DNA of 20,000 bases from an uncultured virus (IMG/VR IMGVR_UViG_3300044621_002455) (Duplodnaviria; Heunggongvirae; Uroviricota; Caudoviricetes). The notes beneath the pieces were generated by a model. The model was not told the origin of the DNA. It saw only the letters and a list, made by a program, of their open reading frames with translations, and searched no databases. The stretch lies in the IMG/VR virus record IMGVR_UViG_3300044621_002455; one strand, given 5' to 3'. Positions within the stretch are counted from its first letter, which is position 1; each line of letters begins with the position of its first letter. This document shows positions 3,829 to 17,716 of the stretch, piece after piece. Position numbers and translations under genes: made by a program.

Positions 3829-5680
3829 CCTCTGCCTCCAGGATATCCTTGAAACGCTCAGGCGCTTCCTCTTTCCATTGGTTCAATGCAGCGTCAATGT
3901 CTTCTGGGTTGATCAAAGAGGCTTCGTCAACGTCAGAAAGCACAAGACCTTCCACTTTCATTGCCTCCATTGCATCTTGTTTCTTGAAATATTCAGCAGT
4001 TTCTTTCTTGCCCTTGAATGCTCCTTCCATTGAACCATGCTTGCGCTTGTAAAGAGCCTTGTATTTTTGCGTGACATAAGCCCCAGCAACTGCACTTGGC
4101 CACACCTTGAATTTTGCTTTTGCTGCTGCGATGGCCTGTTGATGCAGCTCCTTGTCCTTGAACTCAGCATCTTCCTTCTCTTCGCGCTTGTGCTCAAGAT
4201 CACCCGACAGATGAAGCGAAGCTGAGTCTTCTACTTCCCTGCTCCCGTCCATGGGAAGCGTGCCATTTTCTTCGTTCATTGGATCGCGGCCACCAGGAGG
4301 TACCGCCAGACCACCCCCTTTCTGAGTGGAACCACCCCCTCCTTGAGTGGGCAATTCTCGGACGACACTGGGATCGAGCGTAAGTTCCATGCTCCATTCA
4401 GAACCGCCGTAGCGGGCGTCTGCCACTTCCTTAGGACTCAATACTCCCAGTTGGATGTAACGGCCATCTACAGCCGCTACACGCGCCCTCACATCCGCCA
4501 TCTCGCGCTCATTAAGCTCGAACAATGGATTAAAAGCAATGCGCCACGACTCAGGCAATTCTCCTTTTGTGGGGCCTTCCTTGCTCAGCATGATGTATTC
4601 AAGCAGCTTCTTCATGGGCCGCTTGAAATTGACGCTTTGATAATCAGCAAGCATCTTGGCAAAGTCACGCTCTTCGCTGCGACCAGTGGAACCAAGACCA
4701 CTCGGGCTTTCGCCAAACAAAACAGTGTGAGGAATCTTGCTGGCGCCAATAATATCAACGCGCAGCTTTTCTAAGATTTCTCCAATGCCACCAAAGTTGC
4801 GACTGATAAATTCAAGCTCTTCTTTCTCCGCATCAATCGCGTAGCCGCGATAAATGCTTTTGCTCATATCATTCACCTGTAGGCGATCACGAATGGAACT
4901 TTCTTTGCCAGCAGCAAGCATCGCTGCCAAGCCCCTCACTTTGTGAACAAAGATGTCAAACTCGGTGAGAAGCGTAGCCGCTGAATTTAATCCCGTCCAA
5001 TAATGCCTGAAGCTGTCATAAACAGTCTGCAAGCTGCTCATGCCCCATCCATAGTTCCTTTGCCGAATGCGATAAGGAAGCCAGTCCCCGTCAAAGCGAA
5101 GAATCCTATCTTTGTGAATGTAGGACAATTGTGGCTGGTTAATTAAATCTCCAGAGATGATCTGATAATAAGTGGCTTTTGAATAGTCGTAGAGGTTTTC
5201 TTCGTTGATAACGGGAGCAATTTGCCATCTATCCAAACATTCAATGTCTTCGATGCGACGTATATTACGTTTATCGACAGGCATGTAAGCGGGACGCCCA
5301 TCGTCAATAAAAAGAAGTAGACAAGCACCCCCATAAAGGCGGGAGTTTTTCGCTGCGAGGTTGAGATGTTCAAGGATGTATAGGTCTTCAATTACTTGTT
5401 CAATGCCTTGTACTTCCTCGGCCCTAACGCCCTCTCCGCCAAACAATACTTTGAAGCCTTTTCGCGTGGCTTGGTCAGCATAGATGTCAACAATACGACG
5501 AGGGAGCCATTCACCATAAAGATTTTCTAGTTCTTCTTGAGCCAAGAAAACAGTGGCCGTAGTTTTAGTATATTGCGCCTTGTCACGGCCAGTGCCCATG
5601 CCAATGAGCACGTTCTGAAGACCATCAGCCCTTACGCCGCCGCTTCCGGCGTGACCAAGATCAACTGCTTCGTTTTCCAT
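3812..5680 (-). CDS. Phage portal protein (DUF1073 / HI1409 family) with C-terminal extension
   Basis: 622 aa. LENLY..WL.RRIVD..ADQATRKGF, SRLYGGA, IHKDRILRF, GWG.S.LQ, IPHTVLFGESPSGL.STG and F.PL.E..E.E.A match DUF1073 portals. Confidence 0.85.
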   Translation of the reverse strand: MENEAVDLGHAGSGGVRADGLQNVLIGMGTGRDKAQYTKTTATVFLAQEELENLYGEWLPRRIVDIYADQATRKGFKVLFGGEGVRAEEVQGIEQVIEDLYILEHLNLAAKNSRLYGGACLLLFIDDGRPAYMPVDKRNIRRIEDIECLDRWQIAPVINEENLYDYSKATYYQIISGDLINQPQLSYIHKDRILRFDGDWLPYRIRQRNYGWGMSSLQTVYDSFRHYWTGLNSAATLLTEFDIFVHKVRGLAAMLAAGKESSIRDRLQVNDMSKSIYRGYAIDAEKEELEFISRNFGGIGEILEKLRVDIIGASKIPHTVLFGESPSGLGSTGRSEERDFAKMLADYQSVNFKRPMKKLLEYIMLSKEGPTKGELPESWRIAFNPLFELNEREMADVRARVAAVDGRYIQLGVLSPKEVADARYGGSEWSMELTLDPSVVRELPTQGGGGSTQKGGGLAVPPGGRDPMNEENGTLPMDGSREVEDSASLHLSGDLEHKREEKEDAEFKDKELHQQAIAAAKAKFKVWPSAVAGAYVTQKYKALYKRKHGSMEGAFKGKKETAEYFKKQDAMEAMKVEGLVLSDVDEASLINPEDIDAALNQWKEEAPERFKDILEAEDAKPE

Positions 5681-5746
5681 AAGCTTTATTTATGGCCATG
5701 ATGTGTTGCTTTTATTCTAGAACCTGGCTACATTGGCACGTAGCTT

Positions 5747-6262
5747 ATGCGCACTATGGCCAGCTTTGGCATCGTTTTCCATTTCAGCGAGGAAGACAAG
5801 GAGCTTGTACGGTCAGAAGCCGTACGCAGGCAGCGTTTCAACGAGGAAAAAGGCCTAAAAGGACGCAATGGAGGGCCGGAACAGGGGGAGAAAGCTCTTT
5901 TTATTCACAAGCTTGGTGCTGCTGGCGAACTGGCAGTGGCAGATTTTCTTAATCTTCGTCAGTTTCTCTATCAAGAAACAGAAGCAAAACGAGGATCTTG
6001 CGATCTTCCGCCAGACATCGACGTGAAAACCCGTTCTCGTCATGACTACGATCTCATCTGCCAATTAGACGAGAAGCCTGGAAAAACCTTAGTGTTGGTT
6101 ACGATACAGAACAAAATCACTCTTCTCCATGGTTGGATGAAAAGTGAAGATGCAATGCAGGAACAATGGAAAAAAGATCCTGCTCGCGGAAGACCAGCTT
6201 ATTTCGTTCCACAATCTGCTTTGTTTCCTCTCATAGACCTACGCCATGCTGAAATGTTCTGA
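5747..6262 (+). CDS. Hypothetical phage protein, PD-(D/E)xK nuclease-like
   Basis: GAAGELAVADFL...D...DIDVKT pattern resembles a restriction-endonuclease-like fold. Overlaps the TerL start. Confidence 0.5.
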   Translation: MRTMASFGIVFHFSEEDKELVRSEAVRRQRFNEEKGLKGRNGGPEQGEKALFIHKLGAAGELAVADFLNLRQFLYQETEAKRGSCDLPPDIDVKTRSRHDYDLICQLDEKPGKTLVLVTIQNKITLLHGWMKSEDAMQEQWKKDPARGRPAYFVPQSALFPLIDLRHAEMF

Positions 6263-12014: not shown

Positions 12015-12717
12015 AGAAGCTTTGCGAAGATCATCTCACGCTAGTCGTTATCAATAATTGCACAAGTGCCATTTAATACAAAATGCAGCTTTCCCATTGA
12101 ATCCTTAAGAAACTTGGAAGAATTTAGTCATAATGTTCACCACGATACCAAAAACGCCACATTTGAGCCACAGTGCGAGATACGATACCTAAGCGGAGCC
12201 ACTACTAAAGAGCTTAAGCGGCTCCGCGCCTAGCCTGCTAGACGACGCTTCTAAGCGAAAGCTTCAAGCGAGCGGAGTCCCCCGAAGGGACGAAGCGTCT
12301 ACTGAGAAAAAAGGCTAGACAAGCTGCTCATTCATGACGAGTGGAGCCCCAAAGGCGGAACGTTCTTCTCTGAGCAGCGAAAAACAAAAAGGCTGATCCA
12401 GATCCTATGTAATGGATTGGGCATACTATGTCTCGCCAATTGGAACGAGCTAAAAGCTTTTCCATCTCAAGAAGGTCTAGCAACGGCGGCCGTCAGGGCC
12501 GCCTTTTCAAGAAAACAGACGATGGAGAGGAGGGTGATGCAAATTGTTTAGAGCTGGCATATTGTCTTGTTTCGCTTTTGTTTATCATTCCGCCCCCTTT
12601 GGGGCTTCATTCGTCTTGCTTATTGTCTTGAAATGCCTCAAGCGGCGCCTGCGGCTTGCTTTCGGCATAGTGCTACTGGGCTTTTGCTGGTTAGCATTTA
12701 GCAGTTACGAAAAGGTT

Positions 12718-13212
12718 ATGGAAGCTAGCTCAAAGCGTTGTTCGGTTTGCAAGGAGATCAAAAACCTCTCGTTGTTTGGTGTTCGCAAAAAAGCTAAAGA
12801 TGGTCGCAATTATCGCTGTAAAGTTTGCCAGTCAAAATCGAGCAGAGACAGTCGGTCCAAAAATCCAGTGGCAACACAAATTGGGACTATGGTCAAAAAA
12901 GCTAAAGAGCGCTCTATCTTGAAAAAATTGCCCTTTGACATTGATTCCGAATACCTCCTTGATCGGGCTCCTTCCCATTGCCCAATTTTCAATATTCCAC
13001 TGGAATGGTCGTGCTTTCGTTCAGGGAAAAAAGGCCCGCTCCCCAATAGCCCATCCCTAGACCGCATCGTCCCGGATCTTGGCTACGTCAAAGGAAACGT
13101 ATGGATTATTAGCCATAGGGCAAATACAATCAAAAGCAATGCCACTCACGAAGAACTAAAACTAGTGGCAAACGCCGTAGGCAAAGCAATAGTCGATAGC
13201 CTAGAATTTTAG
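12718..13212 (+). CDS. HNH endonuclease with N-terminal zinc finger
   Basis: KRCSVCKEIK...CKVC, CPIF, and SPSLDRIVPDLGYVKGNVWIISHRANTIKSN (DR-type HNH). Start at ATG 12718. Confidence 0.85.
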   Translation: MEASSKRCSVCKEIKNLSLFGVRKKAKDGRNYRCKVCQSKSSRDSRSKNPVATQIGTMVKKAKERSILKKLPFDIDSEYLLDRAPSHCPIFNIPLEWSCFRSGKKGPLPNSPSLDRIVPDLGYVKGNVWIISHRANTIKSNATHEELKLVANAVGKAIVDSLEF

Positions 13213-13468
13213 ACTAGGCATAAATACTTAGGCGAAAAAAAAGGGGATGAAAAATGGCGCCACTTTTCGGGGAGGTATGCCCACATGCGCCTTGCCGCAT
13301 AAGCCGGTTACTGCTCTATGCGCCTACACGCATAAGCGCATAACAGTACGGTTGTACCATCAGAAAAACTAATGTTACGAAATGTTACGATTGCGGGAAT
13401 CTGGCGAAATTTCGACTAGATTTGGGCATGAGACGGGCGACCGTCTCGCCGCCCCTCGACAACCTGCC

Positions 13469-13621
13469 ATGACCTCCCCCTCGATCGCCTCCCTGTTCGC
13501 CGCTCGCCTTCGCGAGCTCGAGGAGCAGGATCGCCAGAGCCAGGCGAAAACAGCCAAAACACTAGCTAGCGTCAAGGCTACGATCGCCGAGCTCGAGAGC
13601 CTAGAGATCCCTCTAGACTGA
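13469..13621 (+). CDS. Small coiled-coil protein (50 aa)
   Basis: MTSPSIASLFAARLRELEEQDRQSQAKTAKTLASVKATIAELESLEIPLD; preceded by a GTTACGAAAT motif and followed by a terminator. Confidence 0.6.
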   Translation: MTSPSIASLFAARLRELEEQDRQSQAKTAKTLASVKATIAELESLEIPLD

Positions 13622-13626
13622 TAGCT

Positions 13627-13653
13627 AAAAGCCGACCTTAGAGGTCGGCTTTT
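13627..13653. terminator. Bidirectional intrinsic terminator
   Basis: aaaagccgacct-tag-aggtcggctttt, between convergent units. Confidence 0.8.
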
Positions 13654-13820
13654 CTATTCTTGCCATTATGACGCTATGCGCATAGGAGATATTCTCTCGA
13701 TCAGCAGAGAAGCGAGACAGGAGCGAGAGGGGAGAGCATGAGAAGGCCTCTCAACCTAAGGAGGCTGAGAGGCTAGGGAGAGAGGCCAGGAGAGGCCTCT
13801 GAGAAGGAGAAGGAGGGAGG

Positions 13821-14066
13821 TTATGGGAGGGGGAGGCGAAGCTCCTTGAGGCGCTCCTGATTTGAGCGAGAGCGAAGGAGGAGAAGCCAGAGGCCGGGGA
13901 GGCGAAGGGAGAGGAGGGAGAGCCAGCCAGAGCGGCGAGACCAGGAGGAGAAGCGAGAGAAGAGGGGGAGGCGAGGGGGAGGAGAGAGGAGGAGGAGAAA
14001 GGAGCGGCGAGAGAGGGGGAGACAGCGAGGGAGAGGAGAGGAGGGGAGACAGCGAGGGGAGAGCAT
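13821..14066 (-). CDS. Hypothetical S/L/P/R-rich protein
   Basis: ATG ORF with the same MLSP start as neighbouring island ORFs; low complexity. Confidence 0.4.
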   Translation of the reverse strand: MLSPRCLPSSPLPRCLPLSRRSFLLLLSPPPRLPLFSRFSSWSRRSGWLSLLSLRLPGLWLLLLRSRSNQERLKELRLPLP

Positions 14067-14080
14067 GAGAGGGAGCGCTC

Positions 14081-14302
14081 CTAGTGACGATCAGAGAGGA
14101 GCCAGACAGAGGAGGGAGGGAGGGGAGGCTCTCCCCTGAGGGAGCGCTCTCGAGCGAGAGCAGAGGCTCGAGCCTCAGAGGCGAGGCGCTCGCAGTAGGA
14201 GCGCAAGACGGAGGAGAGGAGAGGAGAGAGCTCGCCAGAGGAGACAGAGCCGAGGAGAGCGCCAGAGGAGGAGCGAACAGAGCGAAGGGGAGCCGAGGTC
14301 AT
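14081..14302 (-). CDS. Hypothetical protein (73 aa)
   Basis: Preceded by the island's palindrome plus CTTCTCTTCTC-ATG leader. Confidence 0.6.
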   Translation of the reverse strand: MTSAPLRSVRSSSGALLGSVSSGELSPLLSSVLRSYCERLASEARASALARERSLRGEPPLPPSSVWLLSDRH

Positions 14303-14323
14303 GAGAAGAGAAGAGAAAGGAGC

Positions 14324-14343
14324 GGGAGGCCTTGAGGCCTCCC
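14324..14343. repeat. Intergenic palindrome, copy 1 (GGGAGGCCTTGAGGCCTCCC)
   Basis: One-mismatch copy of the palindrome at 15826 and 16835. Confidence 0.85.
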
Positions 14344-14367
14344 TAGGAGGAGAAAGGCGAGAGCTTC

Positions 14368-15486
14368 TCAGGAGCGAGAGAAGGCGAAGGAGCCACCATC
14401 GGGGAGAGCTTGCCAGGAGCCAGAGCCGAGAGGGAGAGCGAAGCGAGAGGCGCTCTCAGGCTTCGCTCCTCGCGAGCGCTTGAGGCGAAGGAGCACAGCG
14501 AGGCCAGAGAAGCCAGGAGCGGGAGAGGGATCGAGCATCCTTAAATCATTCGCGTCGCCATTGATGCACTGCAGGAGCGCCTCTCGGCCGTGCTGATCGC
14601 GAAGGAGGAGCGAGACAGGGAGAGGCTCCCCCTTAGGGAGGAGGATTGGCACGGCAACAGAGAAGCCGGCCTCTGCTGCGTCAATTGCTCGAGAGGAGCA
14701 GCGCTCCTGATCAGCAGCGAAGGAGGCCGTCACGTGCACGCCGGCCTCGCGAGCGGCGAGGAGGCCAGCAGCGCCGAACAGGGGAGATTTCGCATAATCG
14801 TAGAGAGAAAGGAAGGGGACAGAGGCGAGCGCCTCGGGGATAGTGCGGATGCCAGAGGGGATAGGAGCGCCGAACAGCTCAGAGAGGAGAGCGGCCTCCT
14901 CTGTTGAGAGGCGAGCGGCGAGCCAGGCCTCCTGCCATGGGAGCTCCTGGGTTCCGTTGAGCCTCAGAGCGAAGGGGAGGCCGAGGCGGCGAGCCTTGCG
15001 ATAGGAGAGGCCTGCAGCCCATAGGAGGCAGCGAGCGAAGGCCTCACGATCGGCGAGAAAGGCGAGGGAGCGGCGAGAGCGGCAGAGCTGGACAGCAGTT
15101 GAGAGCCCCCCATGGCCAGAGAAGGCGAGGCAGAGATCCTCACAAGATGCCGTCTTAAAAGGGCAGGCATCGAACAGGAGAGCGCGAGCCGTGAGGCCTT
15201 CGCGATCGGCAAGCTCTCTCAAGCCAGGGAGCTCCCCTCTCACGGCAACAGAGCCAGGCAGAGAAGGAGACAGAGCGCGAGCCAGGGAGCGCGAGGGAGG
15301 GAGATGCAACAGAGCAGAGAAGGCGAGGCCGCTCCCCTTCGCGAGCTTCGCGTTTGAGCTCCCATAGGTGAGGAGAGAATCAAAGGAGAGGCCGAACCGA
15401 GCAAGGAAGGGGGAGAGATCCTCAGGAGGCCGAGGAGCGCGGCCGAGCTTAAGGGGAGCGGGAGGAGCCAGGAGAGCGGCAGGCAT
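14368..15486 (-). CDS. GP88-like phage protein (Cys-cluster, radical-SAM-like)
   Basis: SNAKLAK, CP.....C...CL..SGHG, LRLNGTQE, LYDYAK, GFSVAV, INGDANDLRMLDP and LRLK match the Gene product 88 family pattern. Confidence 0.7.
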   Translation of the reverse strand: MPAALLAPPAPLKLGRAPRPPEDLSPFLARFGLSFDSLLTYGSSNAKLAKGSGLAFSALLHLPPSRSLARALSPSLPGSVAVRGELPGLRELADREGLTARALLFDACPFKTASCEDLCLAFSGHGGLSTAVQLCRSRRSLAFLADREAFARCLLWAAGLSYRKARRLGLPFALRLNGTQELPWQEAWLAARLSTEEAALLSELFGAPIPSGIRTIPEALASVPFLSLYDYAKSPLFGAAGLLAAREAGVHVTASFAADQERCSSRAIDAAEAGFSVAVPILLPKGEPLPVSLLLRDQHGREALLQCINGDANDLRMLDPSPAPGFSGLAVLLRLKRSRGAKPESASRFALPLGSGSWQALPDGGSFAFSRS

Positions 15487-15549
15487 GATCAACAGAGAAG
15501 AGAGGGGACAGAGAGAAGGCCTCCCCCTTGAGAAGGAGAGGCCAGAGCC

Positions 15550-15795
15550 TCAGGAGAGGCGAGAGCGGCGATTGTCTCTCTGAGCGAGGCCGTCACCGAG
15601 AGCAGCGCCAGAGAGGAGGAGAGAAGTGACGGCAGAAGTGGAGAAGAGAATAAAGGGGAGAGCCAGGGGAGCGGCCTCCTTAGCAGAGGGAGCCTCAGAG
15701 GCCCATTTCGCGTAGGAGAAGGAGCAGAGGCCGAATAGGACAGAGCCGAGGCCGAGGAGGCCAGAGAAGGCGAAGGAGGAGAGAGGGGAGCGCAT
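15550..15795 (-). CDS. Small two-helix membrane protein (81 aa)
   Basis: ATG 15795 after the palindrome and CT leader; two hydrophobic segments. Confidence 0.6.
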   Translation of the reverse strand: MRSPLSSFAFSGLLGLGSVLFGLCSFSYAKWASEAPSAKEAAPLALPFILFSTSAVTSLLLSGAALGDGLAQRDNRRSRLS

Positions 15796-15825
15796 GAGAA
15801 GAGAAGCGAAGGAAGGGGAGGAGAA

Positions 15826-15847
15826 AGGGAGGCCTCGAGGCCTCCCT
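15826..15847. repeat. Intergenic 22-bp perfect palindrome, copy 2
   Basis: AGGGAGGCCTCGAGGCCTCCCT followed by AGG. Confidence 0.9.
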
Positions 15848-15856
15848 AGGAGGAGC

Positions 15857-16012
15857 TCAGAACCGAGCAACAGAGAGGGGGAAGGAGACGGAGCCTTGAG
15901 CGTGTCCACGCTCCTTATGGGCAGCAGAGAAGGAGGGGAAGGAAGGGAAGCCAGGGAGAGGCTCTCCCGAGCGTGCATCGATAATACGGAAGGAGACAGA
16001 GCGGCGAGCCAT
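15857..16012 (-). CDS. Hypothetical protein (51 aa)
   Basis: MARRSVSFRIIDARSGEPLPGFPSFPSFSAAH...; follows a TATTGT promoter and the CT leader. Confidence 0.6.
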   Translation of the reverse strand: MARRSVSFRIIDARSGEPLPGFPSFPSFSAAHKERGHAQGSVSFPLSVARF

Positions 16013-16104
16013 GAGAAGAGAAGCGAGAGAGCGAGGCGATCGCTCGCCTCTGAAGAGACAATAGAAAGGAAGGAGAGGGAGGCCAGAGCCTCCCCTCCCT
16101 TTTG

Positions 16105-16281
16105 TCACAATCCGTCACAATCGGGAAGGAGCTCCTCAAGGTCAGAGAGAAAGGCCTCGAGCGTGGCGGAGGGGAGCCACCTAGCGAGCTCCTCGAGCAC
16201 AAGAGGGAGGCCAGAGGAGGCGAGGCCGAGCTCCTCGGCTCGATCGAGGAGGAGAGCACGTTGATAGGAGGGGAGAGCCAC
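16105..16281 (-). CDS. Hypothetical acidic helical protein (58 aa), not in the ORF track
   Basis: GTG start overlapping the upstream TAG: MALPSYQRALLLDRAEELGLASSGLPLVLEELARWLPSATLEAFLSDLEELLPDCDGL. Confidence 0.6.
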   Translation of the reverse strand: MALPSYQRALLLDRAEELGLASSGLPLVLEELARWLPSATLEAFLSDLEELLPDCDGL

Positions 16282-16586
16282 TAGGAAGGAGAGCAGAGAT
16301 CAGCAGAGCAGACAGAGGGGGGAAGCCCAACAGAGAGCGGCACGCCATGGCGAAGGCGAAGGAGGGAGCGCCTCTCGAGGAGGAGCCTCTCGATCGCTTC
16401 ACCATCCCCAGAGAGGCGAGGGAGAAGGCGCTCGATCGTGGCGAGGCGCTTCTCCTCTGGCGAGAGCTCAGAGCGAGGAGGGAGCGAGAGCACGGCCTCG
16501 AGCTCAGAGGGGGAGAACTGGCGGCCCTCGCTCTCAACAGAGGCGAGGAGCGAGGCGAGCTCAGAGGGGGAGAGGGGGGAGAGCAT
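16281..16586 (-). CDS. Hypothetical protein (101 aa)
   Basis: ATG ORF tiling with neighbours; internal SPSEL repeats. Confidence 0.6.
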   Translation of the reverse strand: MLSPLSPSELASLLASVESEGRQFSPSELEAVLSLPPRSELSPEEKRLATIERLLPRLSGDGEAIERLLLERRSLLRLRHGVPLSVGLPPSVCSADLCSPS

Positions 16587-16595
16587 GGCAGAGCC

Positions 16596-16796
16596 TCAGG
16601 AGAGGGGAGAGAAGAGAAGGGAGAGAAGCTCCTCGAGAGCCTCCTCGAGCTCCTCACGATCAACAGCAGAGAGAGGAGCGGGAGAGGCGAGGCGCTCCTC
16701 GAGCTCGCGAGCGTAGAGAGCGGCCTCACGGCGAGAGGAGAAGGAGAAGCGAGGCCAGGAGAGATCAGAGGCGAGGAGCTCGTGAGAGGAGGCCAT
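16596..16796 (-). CDS. Hypothetical acidic protein (66 aa)
   Basis: ATG after the palindrome and CT leader; E-rich amphipathic helices. Confidence 0.6.
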   Translation of the reverse strand: MASSHELLASDLSWPRFSFSSRREAALYARELEERLASPAPLSAVDREELEEALEELLSLLFSPLS

Positions 16797-16834
16797 AGGA
16801 AGGAGAGCGAGAGAACAGAGAAAGGAAGGAGAGG

Positions 16835-16856
16835 AGGGAGGCCTCGAGGCCTCCCT
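16835..16856. repeat. Intergenic 22-bp perfect palindrome, copy 3
   Basis: AGGGAGGCCTCGAGGCCTCCCT followed by AGG. Confidence 0.9.
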
Positions 16857-16868
16857 AGGGGGAGAGCC

Positions 16869-17237
16869 TCAGAGGAGGCCGAGGCGAGCGGCTCGCTTGA
16901 GCAGAGCAGAGCGGGAGGCCTTCGCCAGAGAAGAGGAGCTCTCGCCAGCTTGAGCCAGAGCCTCGATCAACAGAGCGCGAGGAGAGGCCTCAGAGAGAGG
17001 CTCGGGCAGAGAAGCGGCGAGGCGCTCGAGGAGAGCAGCAACAGAGCGAAGGAAGGGAGCGAGGCGGCCTCGCTCCTGCCAGAGGCGAGAGGCGAGAGCA
17101 TGGCAGAGAGCCAGAGAGAACAGGAGAGCCTCGAGAGAGCGAGAGGCGATCGCCTGCCATGGCAGAGAAGAGAGCGCCTCGATCGCGTCAGACAGAGGAG
17201 GGAAGGAGGGGGATCTATGGGGGGAAGGAGCGAGCAT
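16869..17237 (-). CDS. Hypothetical helical protein (122 aa)
   Basis: ATG 17237 with CTTCTCTTCTC leader downstream of the TATTGT promoter at 17287-17292. Confidence 0.6.
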   Translation of the reverse strand: MLAPSPHRSPSFPPLSDAIEALSSLPWQAIASRSLEALLFSLALCHALASRLWQERGRLAPFLRSVAALLERLAASLPEPLSEASPRALLIEALAQAGESSSSLAKASRSALLKRAARLGLL

Positions 17238-17286
17238 GAGAAGAGAAGCGAGGGGACAGAGGCCAGGAGGAGCGGCCTCGATCGAG

Positions 17287-17347
17287 ACAATAAAGAGAAG
17301 AGGAGAGGAGGCCAGAGGCTCTCTGGCCCATTGAAATATTTCGTAAC
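17287..17347 (-). promoter_or_regulatory. Early-type promoter module: GTTACGAAAT - hairpin - TATTGT
   Basis: Similar architecture at 16058-16121, 18888-18938 and 19355-19403; only the TATTGT box is visible at 19987-19992 (window edge). Confidence 0.6.
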
Positions 17348-17408
17348 GTATGTGCCTATGCGCCTTGGCGCATAAAAGCATAGGCGGCCAAGCATGACTG
17401 GTTGCAAT

Positions 17409-17613
17409 ACGTATCAGTATCAACGAACTGGCATGATCAGTATCAACAACAGACTGCGCTTGTGATCATGATCATGATCAAACGGTGCTATCAGTACGTA
17501 TCAGGAATCAATGCCTGATAACGATCAGTATCAAGAATTGGGCCTGATCATGATACGTATCACGGCCGCCGCTGCTACGGTTCCGTATCAGTAGCGATAG
17601 TACAAATGTACTA
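17409..17613. repeat. ATCA (GTATCA / TGATCA) motif array
   Basis: 15 ATCA on the + strand in about 180 bp; palindromes TGATACGTATCA and TAGTACA-AA-TGTACTA. Confidence 0.85.
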
Positions 17614-17641
17614 GAAAAATGGCCTATTTAAGCGCTTCTAA

Positions 17642-17695
17642 TATACCGCATTTCAGCAAGTCCCTATACCGCCTTTTAGCAAGTCCCTATACCGC
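17642..17695. repeat. 23-bp-period tandem repeat
   Basis: AGCAAGTCCCTATACCGC at 17655 and 17678, plus a partial TATACCGC at 17642. Confidence 0.85.
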
Positions 17696-17716
17696 TTCCC
17701 ATCGTTTCCAAAATTT

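Follow-up and report, generated by a model that had tools for sequence, protein, structure and literature searches.

A 3.6 kb adenine-poor, pyrimidine-rich gene island, apparently a single transcription unit, in an uncultured virus taken to be a lake cyanophage

Szybalski's rule, or purine loading, describes a strand-specific bias that follows the direction of transcription, extends to silent sites, and influences the choice of both codons and amino acids. The T7 class I and T5 pre-early regions are compact groups of small genes for host take-over, preceded by host-type promoters, and we know of no compositional code for them. Other comparable cases are the islands attributed to transfer, amelioration or GC-biased conversion, and the depletion of PAM or restriction sites from phage genomes. 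The window analysed here (20,000 nt) comes from an uncultured freshwater siphovirus, which we infer to be a lake cyanophage, and contains at positions 13690-17330 an island of 3.6 kb with all the above features of purine loading. However, its sign is reversed, the message being 69% pyrimidine, and a single 3.6 kb operon is affected, not a whole genome. Passages of PMC13323073 ascribe purine bias in bacteria to avoidance of Rho, the target of which is pyrimidine-rich RNA with more C than G. Rho is absent from cyanobacteria according to PMC12642595, and thus the known driver of purine loading would be absent from the presumed host lineage; this would account for the tolerance of the island, not for its existence. 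Like the T7 and T5 early regions, the island appears as a single unit that encodes small, often acidic accessory proteins, with intergenic hairpins and a gene content varying among relatives, whereas a position at the genome end and early timing are only presumed for it. With transfer-type islands it shares a sharp GC jump, a cassette swapped between close relatives, and an excess of GC>AT changes, but it differs in its strong strand asymmetry, in keeping its composition over near-saturated silent divergence, and in occupying the same genome place across the family. As in PAM or restriction-site depletion, one pair (GT/AC) is lost symmetrically, silent sites included; here, however, a local 3- to 4-fold loss takes the place of a slight one throughout the genome, other palindromes show strong enrichment, and the skew is left unexplained.

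Base fractions on the + strand of the island were A.274, C.222, G.414, and T.090, versus.263,.257,.229, and.252 for A, C, G, and T in the left flank; that is, T and G, about 25% each in the flanks, were 9% and 41% in the island. GC content was 0.58-0.66 within and 0.44-0.58 outside the island with sharp edges, in agreement with the abrupt switch at both edges described in the initial annotation. Among the dinucleotides listed there as scarce, AC (observed/expected 0.29, 65 copies), GT (0.27, 36 copies), TA (0.39), and TG (0.55) remained depleted on the + strand after correction for mononucleotide composition, as did AA (0.52), whereas TT, with 46 copies versus 29 expected from the T content, was not depleted. 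The count of about four TGT was exact, ACA occurring 4 times on the message (minus) strand versus 38 times on the template strand. The bias had been said to cover codon positions and leaders alike, and message-strand A was indeed low at all three codon positions (.069,.156, and.049), at four-fold sites (n = 645; A.043, C.555, G.098, T.304), and in intergenic DNA (497 nt; A.074). Silent sites and leaders were the most biased parts, with pyrimidines making up 86% of the four-fold silent sites in supported genes. The net message-strand shift relative to the flanks (A -.166, C +.170, G -.022, T +.018) amounts to replacement of A by C; at silent sites, G also gives way to C or T. Silent-site context was such that T runs and C runs were avoided (TTT, z -4.9; CCC, z -4.0) and alternating CT favoured, with C-ending to T-ending ratios of 14:31 for NAY, 108:11 for NGY, and 122:161 for NCY codons. 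The remaining message purines lie mostly in GAG/AGG words, which could pair with the abundant CTC/CCT words. The island proteins are rich in L (21%), S (14.5%), A (12.8%), R (9.5%), and P (8.9%) and, as anticipated, contain little K (1.5%), N (0.6%), T (1.3%), and Y (0.8%). Rewriting these proteins in flank codon usage gave 17% A versus the actual 9%, which, together with the extreme bias of silent sites and leaders, bears out the core proposal of a pressure on the nucleic acid beyond that on the proteins. The proposed independence from particular tRNAs is thereby refuted, since the bias is not confined to amino-acid content.

Adenine poverty extends from a conserved -10-like hexamer to just before a terminator-like hairpin, and the island is therefore read as one transcription unit. 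The hexamer, TTCAAT (GACAAT in relatives), located on the minus strand at nt 17330..17335, is a putative operon promoter; its columns were invariant or nearly so in 13 sequences, and A makes up.24 of the 100 nt before it but.07 of the 100 nt after it, the drop being seen in 13 of 13 relatives. Promoter consensus scanning did not call this hexamer, and it found none of the internal promoters that had been suggested for the island. Just upstream lies an operator-like palindrome, TATGCGCC-AA-GGCGCATA (nt 17357..17374), in a region conserved among relatives. Half-site copies of it also flank the other island edge, where a palindrome CTATGCGCATAG is located (nt 13674..13685); TATGCGC occurs 8 times in the window versus 2.27 expected, a number reached in 0 of 200 shuffles. 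At the presumed transcript start, a possible 5' stem-loop, GGCCAGAG-AGC-CTCTGGCC (minus strand, nt 17310..17328), can be read from the sequence, and the differing sequences of relatives at this site can also pair. An intergenic hairpin, AGGGAGGCCTCGAGGCCTCCCT (repeats D1 and I1), followed by a pyrimidine-only leader, was observed at nt 16835..16856, and repeat search revealed further copies at nt 15826..15847 and 14324..14344; its 8-mer GGGAGGCC was present in 15 of 15 islands, with 109 copies in total. The two-way terminator-like hairpin at nt 13627..13653, with a 12-pair stem and A and T runs on either side, probably marks the end of the unit, the adenine poverty stopping about 40 nt before it.

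Nine ORFs, all on the minus strand, tile the island, compared with the eight or so initially counted; judged from substitution counts at codon positions 1/2/3, coding support was clear for five, weak for two and ambiguous for the two candidates described below, and none of the + strand ORFs in the island was supported by codon-position patterns. Homologues given below were counted among the fetched loci. The first gene (nt 16869..17237; 79/41/143) encoded a helical protein of 122 aa with homologues in 28 loci, 4 of them of the unskewed clade, and no match in Pfam, PHROG or Atlas, thus belonging to no known family. It is followed by genes for an acidic 66-aa protein (nt 16596..16796; 25/21/36, a weak signal; 13 loci), a 101-aa protein (nt 16281..16586; 28/27/76; 19 loci), and an acidic, helical 58-aa protein (nt 16105..16281; 51/26/87; 26 loci). 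The GTG start of the latter overlaps the stop codon of the preceding gene (TAGTG at 16281); the stop/start coupling noted earlier thus holds for some junctions such as this one, but not for others. A candidate ORF of 51 aa (nt 15857..16012; 9/20/22; 4 loci) and a candidate gene of 81 aa with two hydrophobic stretches (nt 15550..15795; 124/105/139; 3 loci) come next, the former preceded by a repeated leader, CTTCTCTTCTCATG, with copies at nt 16010-16023 and, at the 81-aa candidate, nt 15793-15806. The largest product, a GP88-family protein of 372 aa (nt 14368..15486; 265/159/691), matched Pfam PF17338 (E 2.1e-8; 34.8 bits, cut-off 24.4) and phrog_1617 (E 2.8e-21) and possessed a conserved Cys triad. 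Its predicted structure (pLDDT 88) had radical SAM enzymes as all 20 of its best 20 VIA matches (Z 4.8-6.5), suggesting an enzyme-like protein with a predicted radical-SAM-like fold. The last two genes encoded a 73-aa protein (nt 14081..14302; 24/10/34, weak; 10 loci), missing from a strain variant found in 3 of 4 runs, and an 81-aa protein of very low complexity (L/S/P/R; nt 13821..14066; 68/55/111; 17 loci).

Skewed islands were common to all 21 related viral loci having a GP88 homologue of at least 58% identity, so that the island is conserved, and synteny was kept in dozens of loci. Each of five near-complete relatives carried one skewed island, in one case located 6.5-9.5 kb from an arbitrary record end; some podovirus records have distant GP88 homologues at 0.4-2.5 kb from their start. 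Genes next to the island are similar to genes of Synechococcus phage S-CBS4. In sister phages the allele is GC-rich without the skew, and flanks are about 90% identical in phages with either allele. The closest flank relative, locus L061, is sister to the window in the tree of RNR (93% identical), while its GP88 allele shares only 46% identity with that of the window. Within the GP88 family (37-92% identity), gene GC ranged from.55 to.75 in genomes of.40 to.69 GC.

Silent divergence among islands was up to.57, with saturation at about.64, and the composition was kept. Recent polarised changes in an island gene comprised 165 GC>AT versus 82 AT>GC, compared with 156 versus 161 in RNR, the flank control; pyrimidine-to-purine changes outnumbered purine-to-pyrimidine ones in this control as well, and their excess is thus not island-specific. 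Because near-saturated silent sites keep the composition and recent changes erode GC here, unlike in the flank, the island composition is maintained against mutation by selection or a selection-like force.

As to the target of this force, we tentatively favour, at clearly less than even chance, a persistent, selection-like pressure acting on the unit's nucleic acid, in which the transcript is protected from ribonucleases. The message is purine-poor, its single-stranded parts almost pure pyrimidine, and would offer few targets to endoribonucleases that depend on A or another purine being unpaired; candidates may include cyanobacterial RNase E with its 'A-U clamp', mRNA-interferase toxins, and defence RNases. 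Passages of PMC8682795 state that cyanobacterial RNase E prefers single-stranded RNA with A at -3/-4 and U at +2, and parts of PMC3113571 and PMC9692554 describe the exploitation of host RNase E in cyanophage infection. A C-rich, G-poor message would be affordable only without Rho, as in cyanobacteria. In support, it is the coding strand that carries the skew in every supported gene, predicted unpaired A amounts to 32 per kb in the island versus 137 per kb in flank genes, and 88% of the predicted single-stranded bases of the island message are pyrimidine. Of the drivers initially proposed, RNase-resistant mRNA thus fits best, the asymmetry of ACA included, but without motif-specific support: ACA, AAA, and A-N3-U were not rarer than predicted by synonymous codon shuffles (z -1.2 to +1.2), so that the support is purely compositional. 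Against protection from RNases, the silent-site avoidance of G and the symmetric GT/AC loss are left unexplained by an A-specific RNase, and the unskewed GC-rich allele suffices in sister phages with nearly identical flanks. The island message was not less structured than flank messages (-34.9 versus -30.5 kcal per 120 nt), and no nuclease gene co-occurred with the skewed allele in two skewed versus three unskewed genomes.

Alternatively, though this is rather unlikely, the operon may be kept at a host-like GC of about 64-70% in a phage of about 49% GC, for efficient translation or for escape from AT-sensing silencers and defences, the skew being secondary and keeping a GC-rich message from over-folding; random unskewed sequence of GC.64 indeed folds to -43.2 kcal per 120 nt versus the island value of -34.9. 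The GP88-family GC range, which holds whatever the genome GC, agrees with host matching, as do the HIP1 core CGATCG (9 in the island versus 2 in 16.2 kb of flanks; z +3.7 versus shuffles) and the codon usage of the unskewed L061 allele, correlated at r =.78 with psbA-like genes of a picocyanobacterial MAG of 66% GC. For the window island, however, r was only.47 with this MAG and.29-.36 with three HIP1-rich genomes (flank genes,.24-.30); the island uses CTC rather than CTG and TCY rather than AGC, leaders and amino-acid content are shifted too, and the occurrence of either allele between such similar flanks argues against different hosts. A local mutation or repair bias, combining GC-biased gene conversion at a recombination hot spot with transcription-associated purine damage on the exposed non-template strand, seems still more doubtful. 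It would fit a swapped cassette, as the contrast between RNR and GP88 in L061 indicates, a bias strongest at the least constrained sites and bounded by the transcription unit, and the GC>AT excess, which biased conversion predicts. On the other hand, known transcription-associated asymmetries enrich the coding strand in G and T, not C, the net change needed, A to C, is a transversion, gene conversion lacks strand specificity, and the silent-site rules (NAY/NGY/NCY, TTT, CCC) resemble selection on words.

Evasion of DNA-targeting defence, with GT/AC (GTN PAM, restriction or BREX sites) and A/T-containing sites purged from the first-acting DNA, is improbable. The symmetric loss proposed at the outset is real, symmetrised AC/GT being.27 (.20-.33) in 11 of 11 skewed islands versus.67 in unskewed islands and.70 in flanks; NGT and NAC codons are lost at silent sites (GT, z -3.0; AC, z -4.5), and 19 of 64 palindromic hexamers are present in the island versus 45 of 64 in flanks 4.4 times longer. 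Yet it is second-order, since the main feature, the purine/pyrimidine asymmetry, cannot arise from a target on double-stranded DNA; moreover, 101 GT sites persist on the two strands, GTG versus GTA/GTC/GTT is spared weakly on one strand and not on the other, CTCGAG (14), GAGCTC (15), AGGCCT (16), and CGATCG are hugely enriched, and picocyanobacteria are, to our knowledge, mostly without CRISPR. Very improbable, too, is a template poor in thymine so that modified or UV-dimerised T would not stop the host RNA polymerase. Template T is 9%, and template TT is reduced 6-fold relative to the flanks (12.6 versus 78.9 per kb), but it is not avoided once protein sequence and codon usage are allowed for, message AA being slightly enriched (z +3.6); the avoided word is message-strand TT (z -8.7), template pyrimidines are clustered (CT and TC observed/expected, 2.3-2.4), and relatives encode ThyX and dCTP deaminase, with ThyA-type hydroxymethylase in none of five near-complete genomes. 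Recent import from an odd donor, or an assembly chimera, is largely refuted and scarcely credible. The sharp GC jump and the absence of any nucleotide match among 50,697 phage records would suit it, but both edges are spanned by independent contigs of other lake metagenomes (left edge, 4 of 4 runs; right edge, 3 of 4) with 0 differences, synteny and composition are retained as described above, and Pfam and PHROG searches found no mobility genes.

Under protection of the transcript from ribonucleases, the benefit would be continued synthesis of the operon proteins at a time when ordinary messages are being degraded by host or phage RNases. The operon, with about nine small genes and one GP88-family enzyme-like protein, is accessory and probably early. 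The long-kept skew points to persistent pressure at the level of the DNA or RNA.

On the plus strand, which is the template for the island genes, base composition switched abruptly at both edges of the island (nt 13690–17330), from about 25% of each base in the flanks to A.274, C.222, G.414, and T.090, and GC rose from about.47 outside to about.64 within, in agreement with the initial annotation. As had also been described, AC, GT, TA, and TG were scarce on this strand and remained so after correction for base frequency (observed/expected.29,.27,.39, and.55, respectively), and TGT occurred 4 times; TT, which had been listed among the scarce words, was not depleted relative to T content (46 seen versus 29 expected). 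CT and TC were enriched more than 2-fold. The island was not a simple repeat, the repeats found being short shared modules, and the bias spanned the codon positions (A.069,.156, and.049 at positions 1, 2, and 3) as well as intergenic DNA (A.074).

Relative to the flanks, the message strand differed by A −.166, C +.170, G −.022, and T +.018, so that the net change was essentially A to C. Four-fold sites in the island had A.043, C.555, G.098, and T.304 (n = 645), versus.186,.302,.185, and.328 in flank genes (n = 1401). Recoding the island proteins with flank codon usage gave A.172 versus the actual.091, indicating that about half of the A loss was synonymous and about half was due to amino-acid replacement; the pressure on the nucleic-acid sequence that had been claimed is thus supported by the biased silent sites and intergenic DNA. 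Counts of C-ending to T-ending codons were 108:11 for NGY, 178:34 for NTY, 122:161 for NCY, and 14:31 for NAY, that is, silent third-base context rules avoid GT, TT, and AC. Beyond what protein sequence and codon usage predict, TTT (z −4.9), CCC (z −4.0), AC (z −4.5), and GT (z −3.0) were low, and CTCT (z +4.5), GAG (z +6.9), and CGATCG (z +3.7) were high.

All of the coding evidence, an excess of third-position substitutions relative to six relatives, was found on the minus strand, to which the genes had been assigned. Substitutions at codon positions 1, 2, and 3 numbered 265/159/691 for the ORF at nt 14368–15486, 68/55/111 for nt 13821–14066, 51/26/87 for nt 16105–16281, 28/27/76 for nt 16281–16586, and 79/41/143 for nt 16869–17237; the minus-strand ORFs at nt 14081–14302 and 16596–16796 gave a weak signal, and the minus-strand candidates at nt 15857–16012 and 15550–15795 gave no clear one. 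Plus-strand ORFs were rejected as genes, their most variable first codon position being the mirror image of the real minus-strand frame. The small island proteins had no functional match in Pfam, PHROG, or Atlas, and searches of the DNA revealed no tRNA genes and no Rfam family at E ≤ 0.1. An exact leader, CTTCTCTTCTCATG, was common to four starts (four copies were reached in 0 of 200 shuffles), the island leaders were 75% to 100% pyrimidine, and the hairpin AGGGAGGCCTCGAGGCCTCCCT was located at three gene junctions. A special ribosome-binding mode for the island genes was rejected, since a Shine-Dalgarno sequence was also missing from most flank genes; so was avoidance of internal Shine-Dalgarno-like words, as the message strand had 8.5 GGAG per kb versus 3.7 per kb in the flanks.

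Upstream of the island, a −10-like hexamer (TTCAAT here, GACAAT in relatives) formed invariant columns in 13 sequences, in all 13 of which the A fraction fell from.24 to.07 across the hexamer, and the island ended about 40 nt before a two-way terminator-like hairpin (nt 13627–13653). With this putative start and end, the island is probably one transcription unit; internal promoters had been proposed, and the promoter scan found no sigma-70-like promoter within it. For comparison with first-entering early regions such as T7 class I and T5 pre-early, the island of the relative G002 lies at 6.5–9.5 kb of 74.9 kb; the related records are described as linear with no end repeats found, so their ends may be arbitrary. 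Polar DNA motifs were rejected: the window contained 0 KOPS sites, no oriented 8-mer dominated in the way Chi does, and AGCGG, although present 21 times versus 1, was expected about 16 times from base composition alone.

Several features were observed around the island. The gene-free region upstream of it (nt 17380–17700) was packed with TGATAC/GTATCA words and GATC-rich palindromes (GATCATGATCATGATCA), carried the palindrome TAGTACAaaTGTACTA and two direct repeats of GCGGTATAGGGACTTGCT, and has the look of a replication origin or of a control region with several operators. TATGCGC half-sites were present in 8 copies in the window versus 2.3 expected, with palindromes at both island edges (nt 13675–13684 and 17357–17374) and 350 nt beyond (nt 13317–13342); a single regulator may bind these half-sites, or they may be cassette recombination joints. 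The convergent gene beyond the terminator (nt 13382–13621, plus strand) had a GC of.60 (.60–.65 in 10 of 16 homologs) and no purine/pyrimidine skew, and is therefore uninformative on strand versus gene direction. The HNH/endonuclease VII-type gene adjoining the island (nt 12544–13212, plus strand) was present, absent, or replaced among relatives; its product may be a homing endonuclease promoting cassette exchange.

Nine lake-water metagenome runs contained at least.71 of the sampled window words, and the DNA of the window may itself come from three of these runs; none of the runs listed was an RNA run. Among the matches listed, contigs from four other runs spanned the left edge of the island in all four and its right edge in three of the four, with 0 differences, and their depth was similar within and outside the island. 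Independent contigs thus crossed both edges, and the assembly artefact or chimera considered earlier was not borne out. In three of the four runs compared, a strain variant had nt 13735–14363 (about 627 bases, two small genes) swapped for 28 other nucleotides; cassette gene content differs within populations. No nucleotide match of the island was found among phage records.

The family was surveyed in the best 80 of 471 viral loci encoding relatives, and three states were seen, described here with the identity of the GP88 protein, the 372-aa product of nt 14368–15486. Among these 80, 21 loci shared at least 58% GP88 identity with the window, had a genome GC of.45–.55, and carried the skewed composition at four-fold sites (A.09, C.51, G.12, T.28); 42 loci, at 37% to 47% identity, had a GC-rich, nearly unskewed island (G.26–.31, T.14–.18), the rest of the locus being of mid or low GC in 34 of the 42; and 17 loci, at 25% to 30% identity, were of ordinary composition. 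The first two states had several small island genes in common, and their flanking genes were syntenic. The closest flank relative of the window, locus L061, had an RNR 93% identical and sister to that of the window in the RNR tree, and a neighbouring gene 98% identical; at nt 4001–6250 it carried a GC-rich, unskewed GP88 allele with host-like codon usage, 46% identical to that of the window. Near-identical flanks around so different an allele indicate that the island is exchanged as a cassette, and one locus is occupied by two alleles of very different 'alphabets'. Five near-complete relatives (68–75 kb), encoding siphovirus-type structural genes, RNR, ThyX, dCTP deaminase, and primase/helicase, had one GC-rich island each (2.3–4 kb), with a stray single GC-rich window additionally in two of the five. 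One near-complete relative (G005, nt 56251–59000, locus L117) contained an intermediate-type island, with GC up to.71 and a purine fraction of.33–.47 along its length.

GP88 was the only island product assigned to a family, matching PF17338 (34.8 bits versus a cut-off of 24.4, E = 2.1e-8) and phrog_1617 (E = 2.8e-21); most of its 53 homologs also matched PF17338, and its Atlas neighbours were DUF7227 viral clusters. The gene was found in bacterial genomes in 4 MAG contigs only, which are probably phage DNA. Three invariant cysteines (C108, C115, and C119) were spaced Cx6Cx3C, and a GHGG motif was also present in the family. The structure model was confident (pLDDT 88), and its best 20 of 20 VIA structural matches were radical SAM enzymes, a superfamily with a partial TIM-barrel fold, at low Z scores (4.8–6.5); it had no Foldseek match at E ≤ 0.001, the protein had no Pfam Radical_SAM match at E ≤ 0.01, and the cysteine spacing differed from the CxxxCxxC cluster motif. 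Non-canonical cysteine motifs exist within the radical SAM superfamily. Kinship with radical SAM enzymes is thus a lead and not an assignment, and GP88 may represent an unrecognised iron-sulfur enzyme family widespread in phages.

Silent sites of the skewed alleles differed by.21–.57, approaching the saturation of about.64 for that composition, and four-fold sites were 64% to 84% pyrimidine in all 21 skewed loci of the best 80 of 471. Since composition was kept despite near-saturated silent divergence, the island is not a recent import, and a horizontally acquired, still ameliorating island was rejected. By parsimony, which is biased towards the common-to-rare direction, terminal-branch changes in the island gene comprised 165 GC>AT versus 82 AT>GC, and those in the flank RNR gene 156 versus 161, indicating that mutation wears down the surplus of GC and that some force rebuilds it. 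Flux between purines and pyrimidines was unbalanced in both genes and is therefore uninformative for the skew. Known transcription-linked mutation makes the coding strand richer in G and T, not in C.

A cyanobacterial host was inferred from the RNR gene (74% nucleotide identity to that of Synechococcus phage S-CBS4), the lake-water sources, the binning of one relative with a cyanobacterial MAG, and enrichment of the HIP1 core CGATCG (9 in the island versus 2 in the flanks, z +3.7 versus codon shuffles), the full octamer GCGATCGC occurring 2 times versus 0. Codon usage of the window's island correlated with psbA-type genes at r =.47 for one high-GC picocyanobacterial MAG and at r =.29–.36 for three HIP1-rich genomes (flank genes,.24–.30); for the unskewed allele, the correlation with the high-GC MAG was r =.78. 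Host codon matching would thus explain the unskewed allele well and that of the window poorly.

Four drivers of the bias had been put forward. Independence from cleaved tRNAs is refuted by the bias of silent sites and intergenic DNA, which is not limited to amino acids, and a thymine-poor template is disfavoured: template TT was rare absolutely, yet not avoided given the coding, and template-strand pyrimidines clustered in the island. Thymine hypermodification was likewise rejected, as the ThyA family was found in 0 of the 5 near-complete genomes and ThyX was present, gene content that points to ordinary dTMP synthesis. Escape from DNA-targeting defence fits the symmetric loss of GT/AC in 11 of 11 islands (ratio.27 versus.70 in flanks) but leaves the strand skew unexplained, since a double-strand target is strand-blind and its avoidance, whether of a PAM or of a restriction site, cannot make such a skew. 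GTA, GTC, GTG, and GTT numbered 1, 22, 22, and 20 on the message strand and 4, 12, 13, and 7 on the template, so that the contrast between GTH and GTG expected of PAM avoidance was not consistent across the two strands of the island, and several palindromes were strongly enriched, counter to general site avoidance; the GT/AC loss is a second-order feature.

Evasion of A-cutting ribonucleases agrees with the strand asymmetry: AAA (1.6 versus 21.7 per kb) and predicted unpaired A (32 versus 137 per kb) were low, and ACA occurred 4 times on the message strand versus 38 on the template; depletion specific to any one motif was not found. An unstructured message was rejected, the predicted folding energy per 120 nt being −34.9 kcal for the island, −30.5 for flank genes, and −26.9 for composition-matched random sequence. 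A phage-encoded shut-off RNase was also rejected, the PHROG label 'Rnase E' at nt 74162–74911 of G002 having no Pfam backing, and no nuclease was specific to skewed genomes in a comparison of two skewed with three unskewed genomes.

A transcript-level constraint, kept by selection in a host without Rho, is our tentative explanation, which we regard as possible rather than probable, with protection from A- or purine-dependent RNases as the most likely benefit. The C-rich, G-poor island message (C.414 versus G.222) resembles Rho-utilisation RNA, and cyanobacteria are without Rho (PMC12642595). The coding alphabet would remove adenine and the leftover purines would be hidden in short duplexes, leaving single-stranded RNA nearly pure pyrimidine; such an 'RNase-proof' message would counter host and defence endoribonucleases needing an unpaired A or purine, could evolve only in Rho-free hosts, and would make the unskewed GC-rich allele of sister phages a second way of solving the problem at this locus. 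In this full form, as a general counter-measure to endoribonucleases that is possible only without Rho and has the unskewed allele as its alternative, the reading seems rather unlikely.

No description of such an island was listed by the literature searches. The strand-composition signal of bacterial and phage DNA tends to be weak and genome-wide; here it is confined to one operon, extreme, and reversed. The island bears on the recent claim that Rho dictates purine-rich genes (PMC13323073), as the opposite extreme of sequence space may become available where the host has no Rho. Its adenine content is 9%, its silent sites are 86% pyrimidine, this composition has been kept through long divergence, and sister phages provide a natural control allele; the island is thus well suited to finding out what senses the base composition of a message or of its template. 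It also bears on the tolerance of proteins to recoding, as a conserved enzyme-like family persists at an L+S+P+A+R content of 60%. If the RNase reading is true, the island would represent a new kind of anti-defence, one written into the alphabet of the genes and not carried by a protein.
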